A stretch of 64,000 nt of DNA from an uncultured Bacilli bacterium (lineage in GTDB: Bacteria; Bacillota_I; Bacilli_A; RF39; UBA660), in NCBI GenBank assembly GCA_910576925.1, contig CAJTKB010000005.1, forward strand, positions 3,139 through 67,138. The letters are read 5' to 3'. Shown here piece after piece: positions 5,488-21,883 of the stretch (positions within the stretch are counted from its first letter, which is position 1; the number at the start of each line of letters is the position of its first letter). Position numbers and translations under genes: made by a program. A model generated the notes under the pieces. It had not been told where the DNA came from. It was given only the letters and a program-made list of their open reading frames with translations, and ran no database searches.

Positions 5488-6612
5488 TTAGTCCAAATAA
5501 TTTTTATCTAGTTCTTCTTCTATGAATTTTTCAACTTCAACTTTATTAATAAGTTGAAATTTCTTAGATAACTTATCAGTTGTTATCGAAAAATTTTCTA
5601 CATCTTTATTAACAGTTTGTATACTACGAGATAGTTTATCCCATCTTTCTTTATATCTAGTAAATTCAATACCTAATTTATTTAATTCATCATGTATTAC
5701 TTTAGTATACTTATCTCTTTCCATATTTTTTATTATCATTTCAATTACAGTAAGTGTAGAGATAAGTGTTGTAGGAGAACATAACCATACTCTTTTTTTA
5801 TAAGCATAATTAATAATATCAGAGTGATAAGCATTAATTTCAGCAAATATAGCTTCAGCAGGCAAAAACATAATGGCTTGTTCAGCTGTTTCACCAACTA
5901 TAATGTATTTATTACTAATCGCATCTATATGCTTTTTTACATCTTGCTTAAATAATTTAGTATAATATTCTCGTTTTTCACTATCAAGATTTTTATCTAC
6001 CATATTTTGATAGTTTTCTAAAGGAAATTTCGAATCAATTGCAATAACTCCAAGAGGCTCAGGCGCAAATAAAACACTATCTGCTATAACTCCAGTAGTT
6101 AAAGTATATTGCATTCTATATATCCTATCATTTTTCTCTCCAAAAACACTAGCAAGTATATGTTTTAAATTAACTTCTCCAAATATACCTCTACTTTTTT
6201 TATCTGTCAAAATGCTTTCTAAACTTACAATATCACTAGATAAATGTTCAATTTTTCTTTGAGCCTCATCTATTTTACTAAGACGTTCAATAACATTAGA
6301 AAAAGTCTCATTAGTCTTTTCAAAATTTTTATCAAGACGTTCATTCACTTTATCATTTATTACCATAAGTCTTCTCTCAACATTTTCATTTAATGTTATA
6401 AAATCTTTACTAATACTATTAGAAAAACTATCTCTAAATTCATTTAACTCTTTCATAACATTTACTTCAAATCTTCCAAGACGTTCAGTAATATCAGCAT
6501 CATTTATTCTATTTCTTTTAATACTAAAAAAGATTATTACCAATAATATTATAATAACTAAACAACATCCAATAATTACTATCTCCATACAACCACCTAC
6601 TATCACTATCAT
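5488..6612 (-). CDS. rmuC: DNA recombination protein RmuC
   Basis: N-terminal TM, a long coiled-coil, then SRGIFGEVNLKHILASVFG...YRMQY, which matches the RmuC family. Confidence 0.75.
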   Translation of the reverse strand: MIVIVGGCMEIVIIGCCLVIIILLVIIFFSIKRNRINDADITERLGRFEVNVMKELNEFRDSFSNSISKDFITLNENVERRLMVINDKVNERLDKNFEKTNETFSNVIERLSKIDEAQRKIEHLSSDIVSLESILTDKKSRGIFGEVNLKHILASVFGEKNDRIYRMQYTLTTGVIADSVLFAPEPLGVIAIDSKFPLENYQNMVDKNLDSEKREYYTKLFKQDVKKHIDAISNKYIIVGETAEQAIMFLPAEAIFAEINAYHSDIINYAYKKRVWLCSPTTLISTLTVIEMIIKNMERDKYTKVIHDELNKLGIEFTRYKERWDKLSRSIQTVNKDVENFSITTDKLSKKFQLINKVEVEKFIEEELDKNYLD

Positions 6613-6651
6613 TATAACATAATAAAAACTAATCTTCTATTTATAATCAAA

Positions 6652-6948
6652 TTATTTTTCCATTAAATATCTCTTGTATCCACCTTCTATATTATAAACA
6701 TTATATCCCATACTGTTTAAAATATTACTGAGTCTTAAACTACTACTTCCTGTATCGCAAAATACATAATAGATTTTTCCTTTTTTTAAGTACTTTTGAT
6801 AATTATACAATAATTCCTCAGTAGGTATATTTATAGCTCCTCTAATTGTGCCTAAACTATATTTATAACTATTTCTTGTATCTATCAAGTTAATATTATT
6901 ATTTAATATTCTTTTAAGTTCATCTATACTAATACTGATAATAATCAC
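6652..6948 (-). CDS. Rhodanese-domain protein (single domain)
   Basis: 98 aa with YYVFCDTGSSSLR, an active-site Cys loop-like segment. Confidence 0.6.
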   Translation of the reverse strand: MIIISISIDELKRILNNNINLIDTRNSYKYSLGTIRGAINIPTEELLYNYQKYLKKGKIYYVFCDTGSSSLRLSNILNSMGYNVYNIEGGYKRYLMEK

Positions 6949-6997
6949 CTCATAATATTTTATGAAGAATAAAAAAATAGTCTACTATATGTAGAAA

Positions 6998-8191
6998 CTA
7001 TTTTATCAAATATGGACTATCTATAGTTCCATCTCCACTTTTATACATAGTCTTACTATTAAGATAAATTACTGGTCTTATTTTTTTCCTACTAGAAGCT
7101 CTACCTTCTTCTATATATCCACTACTACTAACAGAATAGACTGAATATGAATTAGAATTTGAAGCTGTTATAAGCCACCAATTTATTTCATCATTTACTA
7201 AATAATTATAATTTTGACAAGATACAGAAACAGTATTATTACAACCACCATCTAGACTAGCTAGCATAAAATCAGATGCTGTTAATAATCCTAATTTTAA
7301 TTTTTCAGTTTCCATATTACATTCTAAAGAATTATCTACACTAGAATCATTTACTCCTCTTTTTCCAATACAATAACTATGAGCTACAATATGTTCTTTA
7401 TCACTTTTTTTAAATAATCCTTCATCTATACTATTATCTAATATATCATCAAGACTAGACTTTAATCTACTTATATTAAAATCATTTATTCCATAATTCA
7501 TTTCTTTTTGAGCATTATATCTATCATCCCAAGTATAAGATTCTTTTTTAGCTCTATCCTCTTTTATTAACATAACTTCATTATTAGATGATACTTTAAC
7601 TACTCTCCATAAATTATTATTTATAGACACATAATTATTAACATCATCACCTCTAAATATATACTGATTACCATAATAATATAATCCTGAACCAGTAGAT
7701 ACTATATTACTACTATCAGTAATTTTTCTAAATAACTCTGTTGTTTTATAATCATCACCACAATCTAAATATGGAATATAAATATAACTATCATCATTAT
7801 TTTCAACAACAACTTTACCAGAACAACTACTTTTTTTACTATACTTATCTAAATCCTTCATATATTTTAAATTACTAAGTTTTTGAGCACTTATTTCAAC
7901 AATACCACCATTGATCTTAGGAAGATCTGAAGCATTTTCTTTATAATATTTTATAGCAGCATTCTTCATTATCTTTTCTATATCTGCATAACCTCTACTC
8001 TTAGATGAAAACATTGAAAGAACAAATAATACAACTACTAATATAGCTGTAAAAATAGCTATTTTAAATAAGTATTTCATCATTTTTTCTTTATGTTCAC
8101 GTTTATCACTATCTTCATATGAGTTATTTTCTCTATCTTCATCTTTTAATTTTTCAATCAATTGTCTATTATTATTATATTTTGGATCCAT
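6998..8191 (-). CDS. Membrane-anchored extracellular protein, member A of the repeated-domain family (NYVxF..LWRV ... GxGTxxxPY), function unknown
   Basis: Charged N-terminus, one TM (IFTAILVVVLFVLSMF), then DVNNYVSINNNLWRVVKV ... RPVIYL ... GDGTIDSPYLIK at the extreme C-terminus. Confidence 0.7.
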   Translation of the reverse strand: MDPKYNNNRQLIEKLKDEDRENNSYEDSDKREHKEKMMKYLFKIAIFTAILVVVLFVLSMFSSKSRGYADIEKIMKNAAIKYYKENASDLPKINGGIVEISAQKLSNLKYMKDLDKYSKKSSCSGKVVVENNDDSYIYIPYLDCGDDYKTTELFRKITDSSNIVSTGSGLYYYGNQYIFRGDDVNNYVSINNNLWRVVKVSSNNEVMLIKEDRAKKESYTWDDRYNAQKEMNYGINDFNISRLKSSLDDILDNSIDEGLFKKSDKEHIVAHSYCIGKRGVNDSSVDNSLECNMETEKLKLGLLTASDFMLASLDGGCNNTVSVSCQNYNYLVNDEINWWLITASNSNSYSVYSVSSSGYIEEGRASSRKKIRPVIYLNSKTMYKSGDGTIDSPYLIK

Positions 8192-8243
8192 ATTTATTCC
8201 TCACTAACCAATATATTATTAATTATATAATAACATATTTTAT

Positions 8244-10556
8244 TTAATTATCAAAGAAATCATCAAAAAAGTCATCATCATCATCTTCATCTGATAAATC
8301 AAGATTAACCTTATCTTGAGATGGATGTTCTTCTTTATCAATTATTGCATCTTTTATAACCTTATTATTATCTACCTCTACATTTGAAATACTAGAAGGT
8401 TTAGCTGCAATCTCGCTCTTATTCTTTTCTTCTTCTGCATTTCTTCTTTCTTCTTCCTCAAGTTCAGCAATTTTAGCATCTATTTTCTTAACTAATTCAT
8501 CTACATTTATTCCACCAGGAGAAGATGAAGAAGCACCAAATGGTGTATCTTTACTACCTCCCATATTAGATAGGCTTTGACTAAACATTGGTGGCATATC
8601 AGCATCTTTAATTCCAAATGGATTAGAAATATCAGAAGTTGGTTTAGGTCTATTAGAAAGACCTGGTACCTCAGGAAGATTCATTGGCATATCAGGGGCA
8701 CTAGGAAACTTAGGAAGTCCTGGCATAGATGAAGACATTCCACCCATACCTGGAAATCCTGGCATTCCAAAAGGACTAGGCATACCAGAACCAAGGAATG
8801 GTGAGTCACCCTTTTTATCAGCAGAATTCATCATCTCTTGTAATTGCTTCTTCTTTCTCTCCTTTACAAATTCCTTTAAATCAAATGTACATACAGGAAC
8901 TTTTTCACGATTAGGATAACTTGCTTTAGGATAATTCTCCTTCCAATCAAGTTTATAATCAGGTGTAAAATGAGTCTTAAAAGGATTCATACGTAAACGC
9001 ATTATAATAACATCATTTTCTTTCATATGTTGTAAATCTGATATTGTAACTAAAGGAGTCGAAGCTGTTTTATCATCCTTTTTGGATTTAACTTCTCCAC
9101 ACATTTTACTAATTTCTTCAAGAGCCTTAAGTTCTGTTGTAACAAGATAGATAAGATTACCACAGTTACCGCGTAAAGTCTCAGCATCTTCTTTACCATA
9201 AACACCATCAAGTTGAGCAAAGTTCTGAATAATCATTGTAAATCTAATTTGTCTAGAACGTGCTGCTGTAATCATTGTTGTAACATCTTTTAAAGGTGGC
9301 ATATTGGCAAACTCATCAAGCAAGAAATTTGTTCTAACAGGAAGCTTACCACCATTTTCTTGAGCAACAGAAATCAAAGTTTCATAGATCTGTTTTAATA
9401 GAATTGTAACTAATGAGTGATATGTCTTTTTTTCATCTTGTATAACAATAAATACAGCAGTTGGTTTTTTACCAATACTTTCTAAATCAACATCACTATG
9501 TGATAACATTTCAGATAAATTTTCACGAGAAGCGAATAACTTAATTTTCTGTTTAAAGACAGATAAAATACTTCCCTTAGTATCAGTAGGTGCATTAATT
9601 GTACTAGAAGCATTAATATAAGCTGTACTTGCAGGATCTTTTGCATTAAAGTATTCCTTTATAAAAGTAGTTCCACCAAACTTATCTTCACCAACATTAC
9701 TCATAAGTGAAATACTATTAATATTGATTTCTTCTTCCTTAGCATCTTCAAAAAGTCCTAAAGCAAGTCCCGAAAAATAATCAGCTGACGTTTTCTCCCA
9801 GAAAGGATCAGCATTTTTATTACTAGGATCATACAAAATATTTAAAGCAAGGTCATCTAGTAACTCAATAGCCTTATCCTGATTACCACTTTTATACATT
9901 TTATATGGTAAATCCATTGGATTCCAAGCACTACCATTTTGTGGATCACGAAAGTTTAATAATAAGATTTGATATCCTTTAGCACGTAGCATCTCTGAAG
10001 TTTTTTCATAAATCTCACCTTTAGGATCAGTAATAACCATACTTTCTCTATGTTTAGCAAGTACTTTAACAGTTGGTAATATAACTGATTGAGTTTTTCC
10101 TGAACCAGTAGCACCAATTACTAAAGTATGATTTTCTCCATTATCTACATAAATTTGATCTCCCTTATAAATTAATGGAGTTCCACCAGCATTACTTTTA
10201 TTTGCTTTAACATCGATTACTTCAACCGCTTTACTATTAATAATCTCTTTGTCCTTTGCCCATCTAGAATATCCTTTATCCTTCTTATCAGTAGTTATTC
10301 CTATACCCTTCTCAAATTCAAATATAGTTGATTTTGCTCCCATCAAACAACCACCAAGAGCAAGAATAAAGAAACATATTGTACTACCAATATATCTAGA
10401 TGAAAAGGCAGGAAGAGGATTAGGTCCTGCTAAATAACCATATTGTGCAAAACTAGACAAATTAACTACAGCTACTGCCACAATATATAATAAAAATATT
10501 GAAAATATTAACAACATCAATAAATCTTCTGAATCAATTCTAATCTTTAACTTCAT
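8244..10556 (-). CDS. Type IV secretion coupling protein, VirD4/TraG/TraD family
   Basis: Two N-terminal TMs. Walker A VIGATGSGKTQSVILP, then ...LLDEFANMPPL...RSRQIRFTMIIQNFAQL. The C-terminal 200 aa are P/G/M-rich low complexity ending in the acidic tail DEDDDDDFFDDFFDN. Confidence 0.8.
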   Translation of the reverse strand: MKLKIRIDSEDLLMLLIFSIFLLYIVAVAVVNLSSFAQYGYLAGPNPLPAFSSRYIGSTICFFILALGGCLMGAKSTIFEFEKGIGITTDKKDKGYSRWAKDKEIINSKAVEVIDVKANKSNAGGTPLIYKGDQIYVDNGENHTLVIGATGSGKTQSVILPTVKVLAKHRESMVITDPKGEIYEKTSEMLRAKGYQILLLNFRDPQNGSAWNPMDLPYKMYKSGNQDKAIELLDDLALNILYDPSNKNADPFWEKTSADYFSGLALGLFEDAKEEEININSISLMSNVGEDKFGGTTFIKEYFNAKDPASTAYINASSTINAPTDTKGSILSVFKQKIKLFASRENLSEMLSHSDVDLESIGKKPTAVFIVIQDEKKTYHSLVTILLKQIYETLISVAQENGGKLPVRTNFLLDEFANMPPLKDVTTMITAARSRQIRFTMIIQNFAQLDGVYGKEDAETLRGNCGNLIYLVTTELKALEEISKMCGEVKSKKDDKTASTPLVTISDLQHMKENDVIIMRLRMNPFKTHFTPDYKLDWKENYPKASYPNREKVPVCTFDLKEFVKERKKKQLQEMMNSADKKGDSPFLGSGMPSPFGMPGFPGMGGMSSSMPGLPKFPSAPDMPMNLPEVPGLSNRPKPTSDISNPFGIKDADMPPMFSQSLSNMGGSKDTPFGASSSSPGGINVDELVKKIDAKIAELEEEERRNAEEEKNKSEIAAKPSSISNVEVDNNKVIKDAIIDKEEHPSQDKVNLDLSDEDDDDDFFDDFFDN

Positions 10557-10600
10557 AAGATACCACCCACTTTCAAAAATGTATTATATCATTAAATCTT

Positions 10601-11374
10601 CTAATTAGAAATAATTTCTTTAAATTTCTCGTTTTTATAGCGATATAATATCACATCTTTACCTAAATTACTATAATATGAGCAATTTATCATAAGATAA
10701 TTTTTATTATCTAATTCTAATATATTAGATACATATGGTTTACAAGTATTATCCAAAGAATTATTATCATATACTTTTTCATATATCATACTAATTTCAT
10801 TATTATCAACCAAAAATATAAATCCAAATGCCTTAGTACTATCATCTTCTGAAAAAACATTAGATATTGTATAAATTTGTTCCTCTACAGAATCACGATC
10901 TATATCTATATTAATAACATTGTTAACAGTTAAATTAGTAGTTACAATATCATATTTAGAAAAAACAGCACTAATGTAACTATCAATATTATTAGTATTC
11001 TTATCAAAACTTCTAATATTATATTTTAAGTCACTACTAATTCCTAACTTATTAGAAAAATCTAAATTTGCTTTTTTCTTATTGTTATCCATTAAATTCC
11101 AAACACCACTATAAATTAAATAATACTTTCCAAGTCCTTCACTTTCATCATAAATATCAAACAAATTCCAATTATAATTTGCCCTATTATTAGTCGGAAT
11201 ATTTCTCCATTCTTTATTTTTATATACAAATAAAGCATCATTTCCCACAGCTAAATTAATATAATTATTTACTCCTCTACCCTTATCTTTCTTAAAAAAG
11301 AATACAAAGAAAATAACAATATAAATAACAGCAATAATCAAAATAATATTATAAATTTTTTTATTCTTTTTCAT
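10601..11374 (-). CDS. N-terminally anchored extracytoplasmic protein, possibly a VirB8/TcpC-like T4SS component
   Basis: A single N-terminal TM followed by a 230-aa soluble domain. Its position between the coupling protein and the hydrolase matches the architecture of Gram-positive VirB8-like proteins. There is no motif-level support. Confidence 0.3.
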   Translation of the reverse strand: MKKNKKIYNIILIIAVIYIVIFFVFFFKKDKGRGVNNYINLAVGNDALFVYKNKEWRNIPTNNRANYNWNLFDIYDESEGLGKYYLIYSGVWNLMDNNKKKANLDFSNKLGISSDLKYNIRSFDKNTNNIDSYISAVFSKYDIVTTNLTVNNVINIDIDRDSVEEQIYTISNVFSEDDSTKAFGFIFLVDNNEISMIYEKVYDNNSLDNTCKPYVSNILELDNKNYLMINCSYYSNLGKDVILYRYKNEKFKEIISN

Positions 11375-11383
11375 ATCTTCTCC

Positions 11384-13612
11384 TTAACCAACAGTATAAT
11401 AAAGTATTCTTGAAGTGTTTTTCCATTTATAAACTTTCCACATATCATTAGAATTACTACCATTTGGTGGATCAGGATCCATTATTTTTATAGTATCACC
11501 ATTAACAGATTCAATAGCAACCCAATGCTGACCATCGTCTCCCATAACTTCTGCAATAACAGCATAATTATTATTAACTACTTCTCTAATAGTAGATAAT
11601 TTCTGAGCTTTTGACATACCTCTAAGTTCTATATTATTGCCAAACTTAAATGATGGAACAATTTCTGTAACTTTTCGCCATTGTAGAAATGCTCTATTAT
11701 CAAATCCACCAACTGCACTTAATGAAGTAGCAAAAGTACCTGGATCTAACTCTCCACTTATTGTAGTTTGAGCATTAAATTTTTTTACTAACATAGCAAT
11801 AGAAGTAGACATACAACCCGAACTACCAACAGTCATATTAGTATTACCAAGTTTTATATTAGACCACTTAGGATCTTTTTGACGCCATGTAGTATAATCT
11901 CCTGTAGAAGAAACACAAGAACTAGAACTTGTAATATCCCACTGTTCTAGATTATACTTTCTGATAGTATTTGTAATCTTAGATACATAATTAACATCTG
12001 TAGCATATCCTGCTTCTTTTATACGCTTTATTTGCTCATATGGATCTGTTGCTTGAGCTACTCCATGTCTAACATAGGTTCCTCCACTAACAAGAAGTGC
12101 TGAATGATCAAGTATTGCTTCCTCCACATTTTTAAATTTTTTAAAAGAAGACATAATAGTATATACACTACCACTACTTGTATTCTCTTGAGTAAGTACA
12201 GGTTCTGTACAACTTCCATCCCAAGTTGAAGGTGAAAGAATGTCCTTAGAACATTTAATTCCAAACAAATTATTAGAATCTGCTGTAGGAGTATGCTTAC
12301 CCCACCCAGCTTCGATAATAGCTTGTGCTATAGTAACTGATGCAAAAATACCTGTTTGAGCATATGCCTGATTAGCAATAGGACCAATAATATTAAAAAA
12401 CTCTTCTTGACTAACAGTTTTAAATATACTAGCTTGTGTATCACCATTAATAACACAAACTCCGCCTCCACCTTTACCACCAACAATATTTTTATAATCT
12501 TCAAGATAAGTAAATACTTCATCAGTTGCTTCCGCACATTCTTCTTTATCTAAATATTTAGGAAAAAATCTATTTTCTAAATAATTTCTAGCTGTACTCT
12601 CATTATAATTATATCTACAATTCTTTTCACCGTTTTCATCCTCTTCCTCACATGCTTCATCAAATAAATTATCAGCAATTTCACGAATTAAGGATTTTGT
12701 CATATCAGAAGGTTTAAATTTGTTACTTCTTGATGCCAATATATGATATATTCCTCCAATAACATCAGCAGAAAAATTTTTTCCATTAGATTGATATTCT
12801 TGTTGCACTTCTAATATATTGTTATACATCTCTTCTAATTTCTCGTCCCCACCTGAGGCTCCTGAAACATCTGCTTGATTACCAGCTGAACCAATTCCAA
12901 TAAGTGTCAAAAATCTACTTGCCGCCATTAAAGGGATTGATAATGCAAATATAAAAAAAATAAATGGTATAACAAAAGCAGCTACATAAATAACTATCTT
13001 TTTAGTAAAGAAACTTTTAGTTTTACTTGAAACTTCTTTTTTATTCTCTTTCGAGTCATTATCCTGATTTGTACTAGAAATACCCTCTTTATCATTTTTA
13101 GAGCTTGTCCTATTAACATATATATTTCTAATATTTCTAGCAAAATTATTTTGTAATTGCTCATTCAGTTTATTATCATTTTTTTCTCTTTCTCTATCAG
13201 CATTTGACTTTGAAGGTTGTGCAATATCTGTATTACTATTAAGGTTTCGCTTACCAACATTATCATCTTTTACTTTTGAATTTTTACTAGTTCCTTTATC
13301 AAACAACTTATTTCTATTAGGATTCTTCATTGACAAAGCCCCATTAGCTGCATTTAAAGCCCCTAAATCATCTGCTTTTTTAGCAACTTTTCCAAAAGTA
13401 CCACCAGTAGCAGTATTAAGAGCTTTTCCTGCTTTTTCTTCCGCTTTATCAATTTTTTTACCCGCTATAGGAGCCTTTTTAAGAGAATCATATACTCTTC
13501 CACCTTGGCCTCCTGTTAAATAGTCAATTCCTCCTTTAGCAGCAACGCCTGCAGCCTTTTTTGATGTTTCATCCTCTTTACGTTTTTGACTACTTTTTTC
13601 TTCATTGTTCAT
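11384..13612 (-). CDS. Bifunctional cell-wall hydrolase (GH73 N-acetylglucosaminidase plus C-terminal cysteine peptidase), CwlT/TcpG-like T4SS hydrolase
   Basis: K/N-rich N-terminus, a TM, then AQAIIEAGWGKHTPTADSNNLFGIKC (GH73/FlgJ-type). The C-terminus carries GSSGCMSTSIAML ... DGQHWVAIESVNGD, a papain-like Cys/His peptidase (C39/CHAP-like). Confidence 0.7.
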   Translation of the reverse strand: MNNEEKSSQKRKEDETSKKAAGVAAKGGIDYLTGGQGGRVYDSLKKAPIAGKKIDKAEEKAGKALNTATGGTFGKVAKKADDLGALNAANGALSMKNPNRNKLFDKGTSKNSKVKDDNVGKRNLNSNTDIAQPSKSNADREREKNDNKLNEQLQNNFARNIRNIYVNRTSSKNDKEGISSTNQDNDSKENKKEVSSKTKSFFTKKIVIYVAAFVIPFIFFIFALSIPLMAASRFLTLIGIGSAGNQADVSGASGGDEKLEEMYNNILEVQQEYQSNGKNFSADVIGGIYHILASRSNKFKPSDMTKSLIREIADNLFDEACEEEDENGEKNCRYNYNESTARNYLENRFFPKYLDKEECAEATDEVFTYLEDYKNIVGGKGGGGVCVINGDTQASIFKTVSQEEFFNIIGPIANQAYAQTGIFASVTIAQAIIEAGWGKHTPTADSNNLFGIKCSKDILSPSTWDGSCTEPVLTQENTSSGSVYTIMSSFKKFKNVEEAILDHSALLVSGGTYVRHGVAQATDPYEQIKRIKEAGYATDVNYVSKITNTIRKYNLEQWDITSSSSCVSSTGDYTTWRQKDPKWSNIKLGNTNMTVGSSGCMSTSIAMLVKKFNAQTTISGELDPGTFATSLSAVGGFDNRAFLQWRKVTEIVPSFKFGNNIELRGMSKAQKLSTIREVVNNNYAVIAEVMGDDGQHWVAIESVNGDTIKIMDPDPPNGSNSNDMWKVYKWKNTSRILYYTVG

Positions 13613-13668
13613 ATAATCACCTACTTACATCAATAGGGTCATAATATCCCCCTTAAAAAATATCTATA

Positions 13669-15459
13669 CTATAGTCCTCCACCACTACCAAATGAGTCCA
13701 ACTCATCATTTGTAATAGCAACATTAATTTGCATTCTACGATTTCCACAAACAAATAAAGCTTCTCCTTGTGAATAACGTTTTATAGAGTCCTTTTCACT
13801 ATCATTTAAATCAATAAGTTTAGCTAAATCTTCAACAGCTTGTTTTTTAAGTCCCATAACTAAGTAATAAGAAGCATTATCAAAAATAGCTTTTCCTTGT
13901 GTAATTACAGATGGATCTGAAAAGTCACTTGGTTGCTGTGTAATTATCATACTAGCAGTATTATATTTTCTAGCACGTCTTTGAATTTGGGCTAAAAAGT
14001 CAGCACCTAAGGCATTATTATCACCTAATATTACGTGTGCTTCATCTACCATTAGTATAGTATTAATTGAAGGATTTAAGCACAAACTCCAAGCATATTT
14101 CAAAATATTAAAGAATAAAGCATTACGAACATTACTATCACTATTCATTAATTCTTTTATATTAAATACCATAAAATCACTATCAGCAGCAAGAGTAGTA
14201 TGACCATCGAAGTAGAATTTTAATTCCTTAGTAATAGGCCTAATTTTTAATTCAAGACGCTCTAAAATATCACGCTCTTGTGTCTGCTCAGTAAGAGACA
14301 TTAATCTACCTTTAATAGTTGCATAAACATCAGTAAATGTTGGATAATCTTGCGAAGTAAAGCGAGAAAAATCTGTATTATAATCAATTCCAAATCTTCT
14401 ATAAGTATCTTGTACTATTTCACTAAACATAGTAAGAACATCTTCCTGTACTGAAGGATCATAATATTTAAGAAATGCTTTTAAAGTTTGAAGTGTTCTA
14501 GTAAGAACAGTATACCCAAGTCCTTGACGAATTTCTTCTTCATCAGCATCAATTACTACTTCTAAAGGATTTATTAGTCCAAAACTTCCACCTTTACCAA
14601 TATCAATAGTATCTCCCCCAAAAGTTCTAGTAATATCACGAAGTTCATCTTCAGGATCAATCGCAATAATTTGACAACCATTTCTAATATGAGTACGAAG
14701 AAGAAGTTTAGCAGCTGTACTTTTTCCTGATCCACTTGTACCTAAAATAATCATATTAGCATTATTTCTATTACTTTCTTTTTTAACTTGATATAAAAAC
14801 TGATTAAATAAAACTACTCCTCCAGAAAAATCTACTCCAAGTAAAGTTGAAAGCCCTGGATCTTTTATACTATCAAATATAAATGGATACATCGCCGCAA
14901 TTGTTTGACTTGGCATAGGTGTACCAATTCTTTCTTCAACATCTTGTTTTGGAAATATTGGAAGAATTGATTTTAAAACTTTTTCTTGTTCAAATCTTAA
15001 AGGAATTGCTCTAAGTTCCATTGCATCTAAATAATTTCTTACATTAGTTTTCATAAGTTCAAGTGTTTCTTTAGTATCACTCGTAATCATAATATGCATT
15101 TGAAAATCAAATATCTGAGCCTGACTAGCAGCAAGCATAGATGTAAAATATTGCAAGCTCTCAGCATCTTGTCTTAATCTTTCTTTGGTAGTTAAATCCT
15201 TTTCATCTTTATATCTATCTTCTAAATCAGCTACTTGTTTATTTAACATCTTAGACATTGCATAAAAAGGAACAGGAATATGTTTTACTACGATTTTTAT
15301 TCCTGGCATACTAGTAAGAGTAGATAAATATCCTGGCATAATATATTTAGGATATGATATTACAGTTAAAATTGTGGCATACTTATCACTTATAAAAAAG
15401 TCACTCAAAGAGAAATTTAATCCTTTTGGAGCAAGTTCACTCTTAATACTTATACTCAT
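13669..15459 (-). CDS. VirB4-family T4SS ATPase, C-terminal ATPase part (TcpF/ConE/Orf16-like)
   Basis: Walker A IILGTSGSGKSTAAKLL, then MVDEAHVILGD (Walker B region). About 600 aa. Its start overlaps the stop of the upstream ORF in ATGA. Confidence 0.8.
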   Translation of the reverse strand: MSISIKSELAPKGLNFSLSDFFISDKYATILTVISYPKYIMPGYLSTLTSMPGIKIVVKHIPVPFYAMSKMLNKQVADLEDRYKDEKDLTTKERLRQDAESLQYFTSMLAASQAQIFDFQMHIMITSDTKETLELMKTNVRNYLDAMELRAIPLRFEQEKVLKSILPIFPKQDVEERIGTPMPSQTIAAMYPFIFDSIKDPGLSTLLGVDFSGGVVLFNQFLYQVKKESNRNNANMIILGTSGSGKSTAAKLLLRTHIRNGCQIIAIDPEDELRDITRTFGGDTIDIGKGGSFGLINPLEVVIDADEEEIRQGLGYTVLTRTLQTLKAFLKYYDPSVQEDVLTMFSEIVQDTYRRFGIDYNTDFSRFTSQDYPTFTDVYATIKGRLMSLTEQTQERDILERLELKIRPITKELKFYFDGHTTLAADSDFMVFNIKELMNSDSNVRNALFFNILKYAWSLCLNPSINTILMVDEAHVILGDNNALGADFLAQIQRRARKYNTASMIITQQPSDFSDPSVITQGKAIFDNASYYLVMGLKKQAVEDLAKLIDLNDSEKDSIKRYSQGEALFVCGNRRMQINVAITNDELDSFGSGGGL

Positions 15460-16076
15460 ACAGGTATCACCGTCCCAAAATTAGTATCCATTCCCCCATT
15501 TAAGAAATTATTAATAATTACTCGCAAATCTTCATTACTAGTTTGACTAGCATTAAGCCCACATCCAGCAAGTCCATTTATTAGTAATCTAATCTTTCTT
15601 TGTAATTCATCATCCTTCTTCTCTTTAAATAAGATATAATATTCAGTATCTACTACATTATTATTAATAAAACTATTAGCTTTCTCTATATCTTGAGAAA
15701 TTAGTTTACGAATAGCAGGAGAGGTTGATTTATTATATTGTAATTGCAACTGTGACATATAAACAGATATATCAACAGGTCTATCAGCAACAACAAGCCA
15801 AAATTCAAAATCTATCATATTATAAAAGTTCTTCAAGCTAATCAAAACACTACTTTGCATATCCTGATCAAGTATAAATATATTACGAGGAGTTATTTTA
15901 ACACCAGTAACTTTATATTTATCATCCGTTATAATCATTCCATTTTGTATTGCTCTAATAGGCAACCAATTTTCTGTAAATGGACTTGTATTATTTTTTG
16001 TCTTTTTCATCGCTAATTGCACACCAACCTTTCCATATATATCTTTGTCTATGGGAAAAAAATTCAACTGCCTCAA
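15456..16076 (-). CDS. Probable N-terminal domain of a split VirB4
   Basis: 206 aa ending ...GTVIPV, immediately followed (stop/start overlap GTATGAGT) by the VirB4 ATPase ORF. 206 + 596 aa is about 800 aa, the usual VirB4 size. Confidence 0.45.
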   Translation of the reverse strand: MRQLNFFPIDKDIYGKVGVQLAMKKTKNNTSPFTENWLPIRAIQNGMIITDDKYKVTGVKITPRNIFILDQDMQSSVLISLKNFYNMIDFEFWLVVADRPVDISVYMSQLQLQYNKSTSPAIRKLISQDIEKANSFINNNVVDTEYYILFKEKKDDELQRKIRLLINGLAGCGLNASQTSNEDLRVIINNFLNGGMDTNFGTVIPV

Positions 16077-16308
16077 TAATTATTACCAGCATATTATGAT
16101 AATTTGGCACTGGTATTACCAAACAACAACAAACAATAGCAGGACTTAGGGCAAATACTACTAGCCCTGTAGAAGTAAGTGGCACAAGTAACATAAATAA
16201 TACAGTTAAGCTTACTCCTGAACCTAAAATTATCAAATCGATTGTTCTAAAAAGTCCAAAGATAAGTTCTCCTTTTTTTGTATTAGCAGGTATTAAATAT
16301 TGATTCAT
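15991..16308 (-). CDS. Small two-TM membrane protein, VirB3/ConD/Orf17-like
   Basis: 105 aa with two hydrophobic helices, directly upstream of VirB4 and overlapping its start, as in Tn916 orf17-orf16. Confidence 0.4.
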   Translation of the reverse strand: MNQYLIPANTKKGELIFGLFRTIDLIILGSGVSLTVLFMLLVPLTSTGLVVFALSPAIVCCCLVIPVPNYHNMLVIIIEAVEFFSHRQRYIWKGWCAISDEKDKK

Positions 16309-16337
16309 TATATATCACACCCTTTTTTATTCTATAT

Positions 16338-18425
16338 CTATTTATTATTCTTTTGTTGAGAAAATCTATCATTTTGTTCATTCATAGAATTTCTTCTCTT
16401 AGTAGCAGCAAGTCTAGTCTGCATAGTATCAATAGTCTTATTAACACTATCTCTATCATCAATTTTAGTAACTCCACCGAATTTAGTAGAACCCTTCATC
16501 TCTGCATCACGAATAAGATCCTTTAATACACTATCATCATAATGTCCTGCAACTACTTCTCTTAGATAAAAATCTTCATTATTTTTAAGTAAAAATCCTT
16601 TTTGCATCTCTGCTTGTTGAACAGTAATAGTTTGATTATGCCCAGTATTATCTACAAAGCTAACAACATCACTACCTGCAGCTTTTGCCTGTTCAATTGC
16701 AGCAATAAATGATTTATAATTTGCTCTAATTGCATTACCAGCATCATCAGTTATACCAGTATCTCCATATGTCCAATCTTGTTTAACCATTTCTCCAGAC
16801 ATACGAGATTTAACAGCTTCCAAAGCAGCCTTATGAGCTTCCATACCAGCAATTTCTCTTTTTAGAATTTCGGCCTGTGATTCACCAAATAAATCACGAG
16901 ATAAACTAGAGCCTAATCTACCAAGACCAGTAGAACCAGCATGCCCCATTGCAAGCTGAGTAGCATTTCTTTGATTTATTGCATTAATTGTCGCTCTACT
17001 TTGATGATCTTTAGCACCAGAGGCTGAAACAAGGCCAGTTCCCACACCAGATACTGTACCAGTTGCTGCAGACATTACTGCTCTTATTCCACTAGTACTA
17101 GATCTAAGACTATTAGCAATTCTTCTTCCTACATTTTTAATATGTTGTCCATCATTTTCTTCAATCAATCTCTCAGTTTCAGCATTTCTAGTAGCAGTTG
17201 CTGCTCTACTTGCTTTAAATGAAGCTGCCGCCATACCAGGCATACGCATAGCAATTGATCCAACAGCCATCATCTTACCAATACCACTAAAGAATCCTCC
17301 AGTATATTTCATACCCATAGATTCAACTACAAACTTTGGAAATTCCTTTGCGAAAAAGAATAGAGCTATAATTATGATTACATATGTAAATTTACCAACC
17401 ATACCAGAAGAAACTGATATAATAATTCCATTAGTTACAAATTCATCTAATAAGAATATAATGAAAAATACAACTATAAGTCTTAAGAACAAATCAATAA
17501 ATGTCTTACTAACAGTTTTTCCCCAAGTATTTAATGAATTATTATCATTTTTAAAATCTACACTTCCTATAATTGGTACAGGAGCTATTAATCTTAAAAT
17601 AGCAAGTTTTAAGGCACGTATAGCAACATCTAATGTAAAACCTATCATAATTATTATCATAATTATAGCAGATACAGTTGATAAAATATATGTATAATTA
17701 AATAAATAACCATCATCACAATGTTCTGTTACTAAATTAAGTATTTCAGTTGTATCATTAGTAGTAAGATATGTATTAATATAACTATCATATTTACTAT
17801 CAGAACACATTCTATTATTACCACCAAAATCAGTTGCATTTTCTTTTCCATGGGCCATATTTACAGTTATAAAACTCTTTAACACAACAGCTGCTAAATT
17901 ATTACCCGCATCTTTCATAGACTCATTACTAGCTAAATCAGATCTTACACTTTCACCATTTCCAAGTACAAGTTTGGCAAGAGTATTGTCAGAAAGTATT
18001 CTATTTTGAAGTTCATATAAAGTTCCAAATAATATACCATTATTATTAAGTTGCGCTTCATAACTACCATCAGCAATATCAGTATCTGGAATATTTAAAG
18101 GAACAATCATTATAAGAAGAATTAAAGCTATAATGATTTTAGAAACAAGTTTACCTGCACCACTTTTATTATCTGTTATTTTATCTGGATTTACTATACC
18201 ACTTATTAAAGTAACTGCAAGTCTAAAAACTATAGCAATTCCTAATATTAGTTGTATTCTACTAAACAATACTTTTATTGTTTCTCCACTGATTAAAGAA
18301 GAACTAGCAACATTGAAAAATATTTGATAAATAAAGCTTATTAGAGAATAAACAACTTTATCAATCGCTGCAAAAAGTTCTAAAAATAAACTTCTAAACC
18401 ATGAATATTTAGTACTATCAGACAT
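16338..18425 (-). CDS. VirB6-like polytopic T4SS membrane channel protein (TcpH/ConG/Orf15-like)
   Basis: 695 aa with at least six TMs in the N-terminal two thirds and an A/G/S-rich hydrophilic C-terminal extension. Positioned between VirB3-like and VirB2-like genes. Confidence 0.6.
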   Translation of the reverse strand: MSDSTKYSWFRSLFLELFAAIDKVVYSLISFIYQIFFNVASSSLISGETIKVLFSRIQLILGIAIVFRLAVTLISGIVNPDKITDNKSGAGKLVSKIIIALILLIMIVPLNIPDTDIADGSYEAQLNNNGILFGTLYELQNRILSDNTLAKLVLGNGESVRSDLASNESMKDAGNNLAAVVLKSFITVNMAHGKENATDFGGNNRMCSDSKYDSYINTYLTTNDTTEILNLVTEHCDDGYLFNYTYILSTVSAIIMIIIMIGFTLDVAIRALKLAILRLIAPVPIIGSVDFKNDNNSLNTWGKTVSKTFIDLFLRLIVVFFIIFLLDEFVTNGIIISVSSGMVGKFTYVIIIIALFFFAKEFPKFVVESMGMKYTGGFFSGIGKMMAVGSIAMRMPGMAAASFKASRAATATRNAETERLIEENDGQHIKNVGRRIANSLRSSTSGIRAVMSAATGTVSGVGTGLVSASGAKDHQSRATINAINQRNATQLAMGHAGSTGLGRLGSSLSRDLFGESQAEILKREIAGMEAHKAALEAVKSRMSGEMVKQDWTYGDTGITDDAGNAIRANYKSFIAAIEQAKAAGSDVVSFVDNTGHNQTITVQQAEMQKGFLLKNNEDFYLREVVAGHYDDSVLKDLIRDAEMKGSTKFGGVTKIDDRDSVNKTIDTMQTRLAATKRRNSMNEQNDRFSQQKNNK

Positions 18426-18445
18426 AACCCCACCTCCTTATATAC

Positions 18446-19252
18446 TTACTTTATACCACAAACTTGATCACCACTAGTGCCAAATACTAAATTAAGTATT
18501 AAATTAGCAAATAATGGTAAGAAAAATAATCCAATAGCACACAAAAGTCTAATTCCAAACTTTTTCTGCACTTTTTTCATATTTTCATCATCATTAGAAA
18601 GAATTGATTTAGTAAAATCAATTGAACCTAAAAGTATCACTAAAATAGGACCTAATATTTTAATATAATTAAATAATTTTTGTAAAAATTCAACTACACT
18701 ATTTCCAAGAACTTGATCACAAGAAACAACTGGATCTCTTGAAATATCTAATCCACCAGATAAATTCCCAGAATTATTATTGTTAGAATCATTTCCATTA
18801 ACAGTTACATAAGCACTATTATTAATACTATTAAGCTCAACTACTTCATGTCCACTTTTTCCAGGAGTTAAAGATTCAGCCTTATCAGTCATATCAGCTT
18901 TATTATAAAAGGCATATACTCTAAAAGTATTAGGTATAAAACCCCAATTTACATTATAAAAAACTAGAGCATAATTTGGGCATACTTCACTAGTCTTCTG
19001 CCCTTTAGCTCGACTTTTATCAAAATTTAATACTTTTTCTCCATTAGTTACAGCCTTACCTTTATAGTAAGTAATAGTTCCTCGAGCTATAGAATAATTA
19101 TCATAAATATCAAACTCATATTTAGTACCACCATCACTACTTGCATATGAACAAGTAGCTAACTTATTTTTTGCATAGGTACTAATTGGAAAAAATAATA
19201 TAAATAAAGCAATAAATATATATATAATTTTTCTACAAATAAATTTATTCAT
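18446..19252 (-). CDS. Secreted protein with a C-terminal VirB2/TrbC-like TM hairpin
   Basis: Signal peptide (ILFFPISTYA), a 170-aa extracellular domain, then LVILLGSIDFTKSILSNDDENMKKVQKKFGIRLLCAIGLFFLPLFANLILNLVF, paralogous to the C-terminus of the next gene. Confidence 0.5.
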   Translation of the reverse strand: MNKFICRKIIYIFIALFILFFPISTYAKNKLATCSYASSDGGTKYEFDIYDNYSIARGTITYYKGKAVTNGEKVLNFDKSRAKGQKTSEVCPNYALVFYNVNWGFIPNTFRVYAFYNKADMTDKAESLTPGKSGHEVVELNSINNSAYVTVNGNDSNNNNSGNLSGGLDISRDPVVSCDQVLGNSVVEFLQKLFNYIKILGPILVILLGSIDFTKSILSNDDENMKKVQKKFGIRLLCAIGLFFLPLFANLILNLVFGTSGDQVCGIK

Positions 19253-19344
19253 CAGTACTCACCCCAATTTAGGCAATATCAAATTTATTATATCAGACAA
19301 AAATAAAAATAGCAATTACAATTACTATTTTCTATATATTATTT

Positions 19345-19725
19345 CTATTCATCAGCTCTGCCCCAACAAGTAGCCCAACTTTCAGCATTTCCTACATCAT
19401 CACTATCACTATAATTAGCAACTATATTAAATACTAAAGAAACAATTGTTGTCATAAAGAAAATAACAACAGCATATAAAATTCTCTTTATTAATCTACT
19501 TTGAGCAGCTTTTACTTCCTTATCTTCACTTGATAAAACAGCCTTACCTAAATCAATAGTACCTAATAAAAGCAAAATTATTGGAATACCCATTTGAATC
19601 AATGGAAAAACTCCAAGTTTAATAACTCTAATAATAGGTAAAATATCCTTACACATATCAGCTTTTGCTGCTATTAGCATTAAACCATTCATTAATATCT
19701 CTCCTTCACTAATATTATGATACAA
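19345..19725 (-). CDS. Small membrane protein with VirB2/TrbC-pilin-like topology
   Basis: ILLLLGTIDLGKAVLSSEDKEVKAAQSRLIKRILYAVVIFFMTTIVSLVF: two hydrophobic helices separated by a charged loop, aligning with the C-terminus of the 18446..19252 product. Confidence 0.5.
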   Translation of the reverse strand: MYHNISEGEILMNGLMLIAAKADMCKDILPIIRVIKLGVFPLIQMGIPIILLLLGTIDLGKAVLSSEDKEVKAAQSRLIKRILYAVVIFFMTTIVSLVFNIVANYSDSDDVGNAESWATCWGRADE

Positions 19726-19755
19726 AATATAACACTTTTTGTCAATTATTATACG

Positions 19756-20730
19756 TTAAATTTTGAATAAACCAAATAATTTCTCAGTTTTTTGTTCTCC
19801 CTTAGTACCCAGTAATCCTAACTTTTGAACTAAATTTGCAATATAGTCACTCTTTCTTCTTTCATCTATTGGTGGTAATGTAAAAAATACTCTTGTATTT
19901 GATTCATATTCAAACTGCTCTACATCTTTACTAGAAAGAATACACTTGTTAAGGATTATTTTCTCCCCCTCTAATGACTTAAATAATTTATTATTAATTC
20001 TCATAAGTTTATTAAGCATAATAGTACTAGGTTCTAATAAATAAAGTACATCTGTACAATTTGAGTAATCTTTTAAATCATTAAGATCAACTAAAATAAT
20101 CTTAGCTTCTAACTTTTCTATTGTCGACTTTAAACTATCTTTATTAGTAGTAATACATCTTTCAACATTAAAATATTCTAAATCATGCCTACTTATTTCA
20201 ATAGCATATACTAAATCCCCATATGTTTTCTCTAATTCCTTCTTTAGCATATATACAAGTGTTGTTGCACCAGCATGACTTGATAAGTTTTTAATACCAA
20301 CTACCACTTTACCAGAATTAGCATCAGCACAAACAGGCGTAGGAACTGGTTCCATTTCCTTGACATATGCCACATCAGCCTCTGAATTATCATGAGTAAG
20401 TAAATACTGAACTCCTTTAATATTATTAGTAAAATTATAAATTCTAAAACTAACTAATTTAGATAAATAAGTAGAACTAGATACTTCTGGTATATTAGGC
20501 AAAAAAAAGATTATTTTACTTGCAACTAATCCCATAGATAATTTCTGAATATTAGAAATATTTAAATAATCTTTTACTGCTGTAATATCAAGTATCATCT
20601 TATTAAAATAGAAATTCTTAAAAGTATTAACAATTTCATCAGCCGAAAAAACACCATTCATACTTTTAATTACATCAATATCTAAATTAGAAAGTTCATT
20701 TTGTCTTTCATTTGTAACAATTACATTCAT
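19756..20730 (-). CDS. TadZ/CpaE-like protein (deviant ParA/MinD ATPase fold)
   Basis: GKVVVGIKNLSSHAGATTLVYML (degenerate Walker A of the KGGxGKTT type) in the C-terminal half. Context is next to CpaF/TadB/TadC. Confidence 0.4.
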   Translation of the reverse strand: MNVIVTNERQNELSNLDIDVIKSMNGVFSADEIVNTFKNFYFNKMILDITAVKDYLNISNIQKLSMGLVASKIIFFLPNIPEVSSSTYLSKLVSFRIYNFTNNIKGVQYLLTHDNSEADVAYVKEMEPVPTPVCADANSGKVVVGIKNLSSHAGATTLVYMLKKELEKTYGDLVYAIEISRHDLEYFNVERCITTNKDSLKSTIEKLEAKIILVDLNDLKDYSNCTDVLYLLEPSTIMLNKLMRINNKLFKSLEGEKIILNKCILSSKDVEQFEYESNTRVFFTLPPIDERRKSDYIANLVQKLGLLGTKGEQKTEKLFGLFKI

Positions 20731-20736
20731 AAACTA

Positions 20737-21219
20737 TCACCTTTTAAGAACTCTTATTTCTTTAGTAGAACCAGTTACTGAAAACTGATTAATATGTGGA
20801 AACAAAAGATTAAATATTGGAATATCTATACTAACAAATGTTTTCACATCTATATAAGTAGTTTTATACTCACTAACATTAGTACCATTAGAATCACCAC
20901 TCATAGTATTATCACTACTAGATTTATGTTCTTTATAACACCAACCAATATTGTTACTATCTCTATCATATCCACTATTACCACAAGTATTAGTATAATT
21001 ACTAGAAGCACTATAGCCAATAGATTTAGCATATTCTCTAATTTCTTCCTGTGCATCATCTGTAATTACATTATTATGCTTTTCAAGTACATTTATAGTT
21101 TTATTTTTCATCTTAAAAGCTTTATTATAGTTAGTATTAAAAGCAAGAAAACCACTTATAAGAATTATTACAAAAAATACAAAGCTTACAATCCAAATAC
21201 TACCTAAAGACTCTCGCAT
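20737..21219 (-). CDS. N-terminally anchored protein, paralog 1 (possibly TadE/pseudopilin-like, non-canonical)
   Basis: MRESLGSIWIVSFVFFVIILISGF..., shared GWCYK motif with the next ORF. No G/xxxxE prepilin motif. Confidence 0.4.
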   Translation of the reverse strand: MRESLGSIWIVSFVFFVIILISGFLAFNTNYNKAFKMKNKTINVLEKHNNVITDDAQEEIREYAKSIGYSASSNYTNTCGNSGYDRDSNNIGWCYKEHKSSSDNTMSGDSNGTNVSEYKTTYIDVKTFVSIDIPIFNLLFPHINQFSVTGSTKEIRVLKR

Positions 21220-21238
21220 CTAATACCTCCTTAAATTA

Positions 21239-21712: not shown

Positions 21713-21724
21713 AAAACCACCTCA

Positions 21725-21883
21725 CTATGGTTCAGTATAACTATTATTGCTAGTAACATCCCACTGATTATTAATACTGTCCTTAATTCTTGGCCAAAGA
21801 ATCACTGAAAAGAATACAGAAATAGCAGTAATAGCAATAATTGTAACTACTGTCATATTTAACTCTCCTGAAGCTTCTTTCAT
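21725..21883 (-). CDS. Unannotated 52-aa single-TM ORF, candidate Flp-like pilin
   Basis: Found by manual translation: GGAGAG RBS 7 nt upstream of the ATG at 21883, MKEASGELNMTVVTIIAITAISVFFSVILWPRIKDSINNQWDVTSNNSYTEP, stop TAG at 21727..21725. It sits between the TadC-like gene and the two anchored paralogs. Below the 60-aa cutoff of the ORF track. Confidence 0.45.
   Translation of the reverse strand: MKEASGELNMTVVTIIAITAISVFFSVILWPRIKDSINNQWDVTSNNSYTEP

Follow-up and report, generated by a model that had tools for sequence, protein, structure and literature searches.

Diverged DUF6273 domains at the C-terminal ends of four membrane-anchored proteins in an uncultured gut Bacilli lineage

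The window, by which we mean the whole stretch of 64,000 nucleotides that was analysed, comes from an uncultured gut Bacilli lineage. A preliminary description had placed six copies of a repeated extracellular domain in four open reading frames, and all four, here called p1 to p4, were found on the minus strand. The genes and copies are as follows.

6998..8191, minus strand: p1, an open reading frame of 397 aa with 617 homologs and 310 species loci (AlphaFold2 model at pLDDT 89); charged cytoplasmic tail, TM helix, Cys-pair anchor module of about 100 aa and one C-terminal DUF6273-like domain
7697..8077, minus strand: TM helix and N-terminal ectodomain module of p1, residues 39-165, with C123 and C144 invariant
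7001..7696, minus strand: copy 1, p1 residues 166-397, ending in GDGTIDSPYLIK
30839..32611, minus strand: p2, 590 aa; TM anchor module, Bact_surface_Ig-like domain and two DUF6273-like domains
31406..31996, minus strand: copy 2, p2 residues 206-402, ending in GSGTADDPYDI
30842..31405, minus strand: copy 3, p2 residues 403-590, ending in GKGTMKEPYKVSD, with a degenerate start motif
51779..52987, minus strand: p3, 402 aa from a TTG codon (AlphaFold2 model at pLDDT 93.6); N-terminal hydrophobic helix or signal and two DUF6273-like domains
52313..52837, minus strand: copy 4, p3 residues 51-225, ending in GSGTYNNPYVIE
51782..52312, minus strand: copy 5, p3 residues 226-402, ending in GTGTLKNPYILE, the most divergent of the six
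62638..>63999, minus strand: p4 fragment, the C-terminal 453 aa, with the N-terminus beyond the window edge
62641..63384, minus strand: copy 6, p4 fragment residues 206-453, ending in GDGSIEKPYRFSMQY

The true start of p3 is probably the ATG at 52969 instead of the listed TTG; the ortholog in a sister species has 396 aa. The p4 fragment is contained exactly in the database protein P0124 (820 aa), in which a TM anchor, four Big_2 repeats and one DUF6273-like domain were identified.

The six copies in the four genes are one homologous domain, as indicated in agreement by a full-length alignment, left-out HMMs, hhalign pairs and the end motif. That the motifs might fail to align had been considered in the preliminary description; the copies were alignable over their full length, with 23-27% identity to copy 1 and 22-30% identity among copies. 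When HMMs were trained on three of the proteins and tested on the fourth against 394 six-frame ORFs of the window, every left-out copy was recovered and outranked all of these ORFs, the best noise being at about 0.3. The E-values were 5e-18 for p1, 2.4e-11 and 3.2e-4 for the first and second copies of p2, 3e-5 and only 0.015 for those of p3, and 5.5e-8 for p4. With profiles of the ortholog families, hhalign gave a probability of at least 95% for 13 of the 15 copy pairs over 140-190 columns, and the two weak pairs both involve p4, which was represented by a single sequence. Against the p1 copy the probabilities were 99.5% (copy 2), 97.4% (copy 3) and 99.0% (copy 5), and copy 4 matched the p1 family at 99.9% (E 1.6e-32). 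Copies 3 and 5 matched each other at 98.9%, and copy 6 matched the first copies of p1, p2 and p3 at 97.3%, 96.8% and 95.2%, respectively.

The motifs at the two ends of the domain differed in their conservation. The end motif G.G[TS]...PY occurred six times across the six-frame ORFs, each time at the end of a copy, compared with 0.014 occurrences expected from composition. The start motif NNY[VI] was present in four of the six copies but degenerate in the second copies of p2 and p3 (GEYV and NKYV), which also show MYQVV in place of xxRxV. The uniform length of about 190 aa proposed earlier did not hold, since the copies span 175-248 aa.

The six units belong, as diverged members, to the DUF6273 family (PF19789) and have conserved flanks in addition. 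In the Pfam scan p1 scored 22.9 bits, 0.6 under the gathering cut-off of 23.5 bits, and no PF19789 match was reported for the remaining five copies. An ortholog (L023) passes with 26.2 bits in a match that spans positions 2-171 of the 172 in the profile. Between about a quarter and a third of the orthologs listed for p1 and p2 have a precomputed PF19789 annotation, as does 1 of 120 listed p3 relatives. Building an HMM from all six copies, as had been suggested, also retrieved widespread database relatives, namely 7,714 clusters at the 50% identity level with up to 11 copies per protein; the PF19789 cut-off was passed by six of ten sampled matches and by the 11-copy protein P0121. Relatives join the domain to modules typical of surface proteins, with Flg_new, VWA, Big_2, DUF285 and, in one case, a prepilin N-terminus among the partners. 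The preliminary description had allowed for a known, widely distributed fold with an assigned function; DUF6273 is known and widespread, but no function is assigned to it. Being diverged copies of a widespread domain, the six add members to a known family. The conserved unit of that family is longer than the Pfam model, because the strand at its N-terminus (NNYV) and the beta-hairpin at its C-terminus (GxGTxxxPY) fall outside the model.

Full-length ortholog families were found for p1 (310 species genomes), p2 (318 database proteins) and p3 (214), and two near-identical full-length proteins were retrieved for p4. Of the relatives that bear a name, 'Clostridium sp. CAG:417' and Candidatus Onthousia are the closest, with 42-52% identity for p1. 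A seventh copy was considered in the hydrolase at 11384..13612, where Pfam reported DUF6273 at E 0.004 (aa 309-397). It was rejected because the stretch is acidic, helical-looking by eye and devoid of any copy motif; the six-copy HMM missed it even with filters off.

Structure prediction of one copy had also been suggested. The AlphaFold2 models of p1 and p3 were confident, and both matched the DUF6273 domain of PDB entry 9QA6, which in Foldseek was the sole significant PDB match of the p1 model (E 1.5e-7, probability 1.00) and of the p3 model (E 9.3e-5, probability 1.00). This entry is the IgA peptidase of Thomasclavelia ramosa (IgAse/ThomasA), whose N-terminal DUF6273 domain has a C-type-lectin-like core according to its authors. 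The alignment length of 276-281 columns and the description of 9QA6 indicate that the matched part is this N-terminal domain. Sub-threshold fold matches of the p3 model were CD94/NKG2A, Lcl (8Q4E) and CLEC12A. In BFVD, 19 matches were obtained at E <= 1e-3, of which seven are named DUF6273, one is named a receptor-binding protein and one a tail-collar fibre; DUF6273 has been described as a C-type-lectin fold within phage receptor-binding proteins (PMC10743442). PDB sequence searches with the six-copy profile and a 108-sequence p1 profile returned nothing meaningful, and the tie of the window copies to 9QA6 is thus purely structural, made through predicted models. The triplets EPN, QPD, EPD and QPN were present in 0 of 6 copies. 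A WDD was found in p1 alone, once, at position 56 of its copy. The number of cysteines per copy ranges from 0 to 4.

All four proteins carry an N-terminal hydrophobic anchor or signal, as had been proposed. None has a C-terminal sorting signal (LPXTG, NPXTG and SPXTG are all absent), and in each only 3-7 residues lie between the GxGTxxxPY motif and the protein end. In all four the chain is anchored at its N-terminus, and the domain forms its C-terminal end, the one farthest from the membrane. What lies beneath it varies, being a small Cys-pair module in p1 and p2 and Ig-like repeats in p2 and p4, while p3 has no stalk. The TM helix and Cys-pair module of p1 are homologous to the N-terminus of p2 (blastp 5e-7; hhalign 99.5%, E 3.9e-23). 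We also considered whether this shared anchor module is pilin-like and rejected it: the prepilin (class III) signal and N-methylation motif are absent from p1-p4, the module has no Pfam or NCBIfam match, and hhalign found no similarity between it and the pilin part of P0194, a relative with a prepilin N-terminus (N_methyl 28.4 bits).

The window proteins resemble IgAse/ThomasA in the fold of the p1 and p3 models, in the Pfam family (near threshold for p1, above it for orthologs) and in carrying the domain outside the cell on a surface-anchored Bacillota protein. They differ from it in several respects. The copies have no detectable sequence match to the 9QA6 chain, and the window copies have conserved flanks, NNYV and GxGTxxxPY, that the Pfam model does not cover. 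Their domain is the C-terminal tip of a chain anchored at its N-terminus, whereas that of IgAse is the N-terminus of a sortase-anchored peptidase. The IgAse domain binds structural zinc, whereas p1 has invariant Cys pairs in its ectodomain. The predicted fold and Pfam family are also shared with the phage DUF6273 receptor-binding proteins and DGR targets called tentaclins, for which a ligand-recognition role was proposed (PMC10743442). Unlike these, the window proteins are cellular and membrane-anchored, with neither a DGR cassette nor a hypervariable region in the window, and tblastn of p1 against phage and plasmid collections gave no match. Compared with canonical C-type lectins and the C-terminal domain of Legionella Lcl (8Q4E), the copies lack EPN/QPD or WND Ca2+/sugar motifs, are about twice the size, and have large insertions and variable Cys numbers (0-4).

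Taken as a whole, the six units are likely to be surface-displayed, C-terminal, lectin-like ligand-binding heads of the DUF6273 family on anchored proteins. Of the adhesin or receptor diversity envisaged earlier, the first part is supported, in that a C-type-lectin-like module at a membrane-distal tip most plausibly serves in binding or as an adhesin; the diversity is not supported. Each domain would act as a ligand-binding head on the cell surface. Its ligand would be either a glycan or the surface of a protein, and binding would not involve the canonical Ca2+/sugar motifs; the binding face would be formed by the stretch of variable length that separates the WRV strand from the WWL..VRP strands. 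To our knowledge, DUF6273 has no reported ligand or binding activity in any organism. The T. ramosa IgA peptidase is the one case studied by experiment, and there IgA cleavage does not require the DUF6273 domain.

How these heads are used may differ among the four proteins. The genes p2 and p1 are the second and the last of a co-directional 27-kb block, with one of them at either end of a conserved Tad-like/type IV secretion-like cluster. Their common anchor module, which is missing from p3 and p4, and their position at both cluster ends make p1 and p2 candidates for its contact or wall-binding subunits. It is possible, though we consider it doubtful, that they are dedicated subunits of the adjacent Tad-like/T4SS-like machine, serving as target-recognising or wall-holding heads, with p3 and p4 as unrelated free-standing uses of the domain. 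The neighbours of p2 (genes for a sortase, a large secreted protein, DUF5411, CpaB-like and T2SSE proteins) are kept around both of two distant orthologs with 41-43% identity, VirD4 is the gene immediately upstream of p1 in 48 of 74 species loci, and the domain is fused to a prepilin N-terminus in P0194. However, the unrelated gene RmuC lies downstream of p1 in 45 of 70 loci, as frequently as VirD4 lies upstream; since p1 stands at the block border, its adjacency to VirD4 may be inherited gene order. In 25 species loci secretion genes are absent from the 10 kb around the p1 ortholog, which in one complete genome, for example, lies between an HD-domain gene and spoVA; the association of p1 with the secretion cluster is not an obligate one. 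The lack of p1 relatives in the plasmid collection also argues against a dedicated subunit. We know of no Gram-positive T4SS with a subunit of the p1/p2 type, and a literature search on RF39 with type IV secretion and on DUF5411 returned nothing relevant.

PrgB of pCF10 is an example of a surface adhesin of Gram-positive conjugation. Like PrgB-type adhesins, p1 and p2 are surface proteins encoded with VirB4/VirD4-type genes and could mediate cell contact. They differ in lacking an LPXTG anchor and in resembling such adhesins neither in sequence nor in domains. Their cluster is chromosomal, the window yielded no relaxase gene, and the adjacency does not hold in every species.

Alternatively, the domain might position the proteins in the wall by binding an envelope polymer of the same cell, be it peptidoglycan, teichoic acid or capsule, with no adhesion to foreign surfaces. 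We regard this as unlikely. Purifying selection and the conserved putative site in p1 suggest an invariant ligand and would fit such a role, as would the genes nearby: p1 adjoins a cluster with a wall hydrolase, and p4 adjoins glycosyltransferase and nucleotidyl-transferase genes. On the other hand, the domain is the part of the chain farthest from the membrane and is carried by Ig-like stalks in p2 and p4, and phage homologs bear names such as receptor-binding or tail-fibre protein.

A recent lineage-specific expansion of a new surface domain, generating adhesin or receptor diversity as the preliminary description had it, is still less probable and largely refuted already. It would account for six copies within 64 kb in surface-anchored proteins, and p1 does evolve faster than its secretion-system neighbours (median identity across species 42% vs 82% for VirB4), with the highest dN/dS of its block. 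However, the domain is not restricted to one lineage: the 7,714 clusters, the sampled matches that are DUF6273, and the same fold in gut-phage proteins and the T. ramosa peptidase all speak against this. Nor is its origin recent, given copies only 22-30% identical and separate ortholog families for p1, p2 and p3. The second copies of p2 and p3 were nearer to each other in hhalign than to their own first copies, which indicates that the tandem predates the p2/p3 split. Gene-wide dN/dS values against a sister species were 0.28 for p1 and 0.15 for p3, well below 1, and the most conserved stretch of p1 is a loop region, with the invariant residues SCQNYNYL. The four genes thus appear to be old, separately maintained and under purifying selection, in place of a rapidly diversifying adhesin repertoire, and for this reason each protein probably recognises its own conserved ligand. 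That the domains are targets of a diversity-generating retroelement, like gut-phage DUF6273, is extremely improbable, since although this is a documented DGR target fold (PMC10743442) and BFVD gave structural matches to such phage proteins, the window holds no template/variable repeat pair (its longest direct repeats, of 40-59 nt at 71-78% identity, are unrelated to p1-p4) and no reverse transcriptase among ORFs of at least 100 aa, and orthologs keep the invariant loop-region residues.

With the six units as diverged DUF6273 domains, an uncultured gut Bacilli lineage has four surface proteins, so far without annotation, that are now assigned to a known family; Pfam places none of the six window copies over its threshold. 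The longer conserved unit helps annotation and is unsurprising. In a lineage with a genome of about 1.5 Mb, judged from one complete relative, several DUF6273 proteins are kept under purifying selection, two of them flanking a strongly conserved secretion/pilus block. The finding would gain importance if the link to the neighbouring cluster were true, and such a lineage would be well suited for finding what DUF6273 binds. More speculatively, and with a low probability in our estimate, p1 and p2 may form a distinct subfamily, with a TM-plus-Cys-pair anchor and DUF6273 heads, that supplies a hybrid Tad-pilus/type IV secretion apparatus, fixed in the chromosome, with its subunits for contact or recognition. 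This apparatus would be very highly constrained across small-genome uncultured gut Bacilli (RF39-like MAGs). If so, it would be a non-conjugative device for cell-to-cell contact or uptake in a dependent lifestyle, whose lectin-like heads choose the partner.

The six units, cut out as named in the preliminary description and then aligned, could be aligned end to end, and pairwise BLASTP identity among the copies was 22-30% where the alignment covered most of the unit. They are carried by four genes:

6998..8191, minus strand: p1, ORF of 397 aa, one copy
30839..32611, minus strand: p2, ORF of 590 aa, two copies
51779..52987, minus strand: p3, ORF of 402 aa as listed from a TTG start, two copies
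62638 to past the window end, minus strand: p4, ORF fragment of 453 aa, one copy

Because an HMM from all six copies would be circular, HMMs were built from three proteins and the fourth was scored alongside the window's six-frame ORFs, 394 in all. Each left-out copy scored above every unrelated ORF, with E-values of 5.4e-18 for p1, 2.4e-11 and 3.2e-4 for the first and second copies of p2, 3.1e-5 and 0.015 for those of p3, and 5.5e-8 for p4, compared to approximately 0.3 for the best unrelated ORF. When each copy was replaced by a profile of its own orthologs, hhalign gave probabilities of 95-99.9% across most of the domain in 13 of the 15 copy pairs; the two weak pairs both involve p4, which was represented by one sequence only. 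The full p1 and p3 family profiles matched each other at 99.9% (E 1.6e-32). The end motif, G.G[TS]...PY, occurred six times in the whole six-frame translation, each time at a copy end, where 0.014 occurrences were expected from composition. These results confirm the six-unit repeat together with its end motif, present in all six copies. The start motif was less regular than had been described: NNY[VI] followed by [LI][WFY]R[IV] was present in four copies and degenerate in the second copies of p2 and p3.

The repeated unit is a domain already known, the C-type-lectin-like DUF6273, in diverged copies. The p1 copy scored 22.9 bits on DUF6273 (PF19789; cut-off 23.5), and a Pfam scan of the five other window copies gave no DUF6273 match. 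Many full-length p1 and p2 orthologs are precomputed as PF19789, and the p1 ortholog of a complete genome reached 26.2 bits over profile positions 2-171 of 172. The cut-off was also clearly passed by six of ten sampled matches of the profile built from all six copies and by P0121, a database protein with 11 copies. As the Pfam model starts at the WRV strand and stops at VRP..L, the NNYV strand and the GxGTxxxPY hairpin are conserved flanks beyond it. Ortholog alignments yielded confident AlphaFold2 models for p1 (mean pLDDT 89, above 95 within the domain) and p3 (mean 93.6); the tail of the p1 model folds into a short beta-hairpin (strands 382-385 and 394-396). CD94/NKG2A, Lcl (8Q4E) and CLEC12A matched the p3 model below threshold only. 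Against predicted viral structures the p1 model gave 19 matches at E <= 1e-3, including seven named DUF6273, one receptor-binding protein and one tail-collar fibre. In phage 'tentaclins', DUF6273 has been reported as a C-type-lectin fold targeted by diversity-generating retroelements (PMC10743442). Classical lectins have EPN/QPD Ca2+/sugar triplets, whereas none was found in the six copies.

Each of the four proteins starts with a hydrophobic helix, located at approximately residues 10-32 in p2 and 8-28 in p4 (numbering of P0124, an 820-aa database protein that includes the 453-aa fragment exactly) and at residues 5-35 in the p3 model. In p1 it follows a charged 38-aa tail, and the modelled helix covers residues 28-61. 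Translation of p3 probably begins with the ATG at 52969, and the listed TTG (stretch 52969..52987) is probably wrong, because the sister-species ortholog (85% identical) has 396 aa, which fits this ATG (MRRYVLV...). All four chains end a few residues past the last GxGTxxxPY, and neither an LPXTG-type signal nor a prepilin motif was present in any of them, so that in every case the DUF6273-like domain forms the membrane-distal tip. It is mounted on a small module in p1, on a p1-type small module plus an Ig-like domain in p2 and on four Big_2 repeats in p4, and is attached directly to the anchor in p3. The N-termini of p1 and p2 are homologous, consisting of a TM helix and about 75 aa that include a conserved Cys pair (blastp 5e-7; hhalign 99.5%), a module that p3 and p4 do not have. 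The likeliest function is a surface-displayed binding head, given the membrane-distal placement, the lectin-like fold and the recurrence of this fold in phage receptor-binding proteins; placement and fold are shown, the binding role inferred. The broader idea put forward earlier, of a domain that binds at the surface, is supported.

The distribution and age of the domain speak against a lineage-specific or recent expansion. At E <= 1e-3 the six-copy profile matched 7,714 representatives of 50% identity clusters, and at E <= 1e-10 it matched 2,677, with up to 11 copies per protein. Partner domains in sampled matches were typical surface modules (Flg_new, VWA, Big_2, Big_7 and DUF285), and one sampled match carried a prepilin N-terminal methylation motif. 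Full-length ortholog families of their own were found for p1 (617 database proteins), p2 (318) and p3 (214), while for p4 just two near-identical full-length proteins were retrieved. The p1 orthologs came from 310 species genomes, comprising uncultured Bacilli/'Tenericutes' MAGs, Clostridium sp. CAG:417 and Candidatus Onthousia. The first copies of p1, p2 and p3 are mutually closest (E 1e-23 to 1e-33). Judged by sequence similarity, the tandem predates the p2/p3 split, because the second copies of p2 and p3 (1.3e-17) are closer to each other than are the two copies of p2 (7.5e-12). In P0194, a 750-aa database relative from outside the window, the N-terminus is that of a genuine prepilin, MNKKRNGFTLVELLV (N_methyl, 28.4 bits), and after it come DUF6273-like domains whose start resembles that of p4, NPNNYVKFNNELWRIIG; thus pilin-lectin fusions occur in the family.

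The proposed adhesin diversity was likewise not supported. We compared the window with a sister species (loci L087 and L088; 85% identity in p1 and p3), at a dS of 0.2-0.6 and hence unsaturated. Gene-wide dN/dS, which a few positively selected sites could escape, was 0.28 for p1, 0.15 for p3, 0.014 for VirB4, 0.055 for VirD4 and 0.012-0.40 for other neighbour genes. Among 108 p1 orthologs 30 residues were invariant, six of them cysteines, and the best-conserved stretch was GLLT...SCQNYNYL, part of the domain's long insertion. Such constraint suggests that the ligand or partner is fixed and is not diversifying. No template/variable repeat pair was found within the window, and no reverse transcriptase in any window ORF of at least 100 aa.

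Two of the genes, p2 in second place and p1 in last, belong to a co-directional minus-strand block of about 27 kb (6998..34224), with the following genes in order:

TM/DUF4352 protein
p2
class-B-like sortase
26627..30034, minus strand: Cys-rich secreted protein of 1135 aa
DUF5411
CpaB/RcpC-like protein
T2SSE ATPase
two polytopic proteins
small hydrophobic protein of 52 aa
two paralogs with N-termini TadE-like by eye, without family match
324-aa protein
two T4SS-pilin-like proteins
TrbL/VirB6-like, TraC-like and VirB4 proteins
11384..13612, minus strand: glucosaminidase-type wall hydrolase
257-aa protein
VirD4
p1

The CpaB-like protein, the T2SSE ATPase, the 52-aa protein and the TadE-like paralogs are the Tad-pilus-like part of the block, and the VirB6-like protein, VirB4, the wall hydrolase and VirD4 are its Gram-positive T4SS part. 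The 1135-aa protein had no match in Pfam or NCBIfam, and its C-terminus lacks a sorting motif; the start of its gene overlaps the sortase gene end. At L085 (5018..7846 and 12586..15294), a locus of a relative, sortase, large protein and DUF5411 form a module that is doubled in tandem. The hydrolase consists of a long low-complexity N-terminal region, a TM segment, the glucosaminidase domain and a further C-terminal region, which by eye (GSSGCMSTS...HWVAIESV) may be a Cys peptidase, with no Pfam match reported there. A weak Pfam match to a seventh DUF6273 in this hydrolase was judged spurious. Divergent at the cluster edge (34322..34732, plus strand) lies a thioredoxin-fold protein whose signal is of the lipoprotein type (LLTTGC) and whose active site is CIHC. 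This protein may act as an extracytoplasmic thiol-disulfide oxidoreductase on the Cys-rich secreted proteins, including p1 with its invariant Cys pairs.

The block looks like a vertically inherited chromosomal apparatus and not a mobile element, because core genes (rhodanese, RmuC, tRNA synthetase) flank it in conserved order, GC content is uniform across the window (24-31%) and searches of the window turned up neither a relaxase nor an integrase. Conservation of its VirB4 points the same way, with 100% identity to the sister species and a median of 82% over 46 species loci; to VirB4 of Bacillota conjugative plasmids the identity is at most 29%. The p2 context was retained in two orthologs of 41-43% identity. 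Among the 74 species loci with sufficient sequence, 48 have VirD4 as the immediate upstream neighbour of the p1 ortholog, and RmuC lies downstream equally often (45/70); at 25 loci the context is wholly different. In about a third of the species the p1 ortholog adjoins no secretion gene. In a complete 1.5-Mb genome (L023, 9860..11092) it lies between an HD-domain gene and spoVAC/AD/AEB of the spoVA operon, and at L040 (11977..13275) a two-copy p2/p3-like gene immediately follows it. From their position, p1 and p2 are tentative candidates for contact or wall-binding subunits of the apparatus, a role we regard as possible rather than probable.

The other two genes are surrounded by housekeeping genes, p3 being flanked by GreA and pyruvate:ferredoxin oxidoreductase and p4 adjoining glycosyltransferase and nucleotidyl-transferase genes. 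At L086, a locus of a relative, a 521-aa ORF (6608..8173), serpin-like by eye and broken by a masked run, lies between greA and the cluster, a position held in the window by p3 and about 17 kb of housekeeping genes. An NlpC/P60 peptidase (41923..42774, minus strand) with an N-terminal T4SS_pilin domain (36 bits, above cut-off) lies amid housekeeping genes, 8 kb from the secretion cluster. GC skew is strongly negative across the whole window, ranging per 4 kb from -0.21 to -0.43. The minus strand carries 52 of the 58 ORFs that reach 100 aa, and several of those on the plus strand overlap minus-strand genes.

The window copies are additional members of the known, widespread DUF6273 family. No literature on a hybrid Tad-like/T4SS-like block was found, and this conserved block is what is most interesting beyond the repeat itself.
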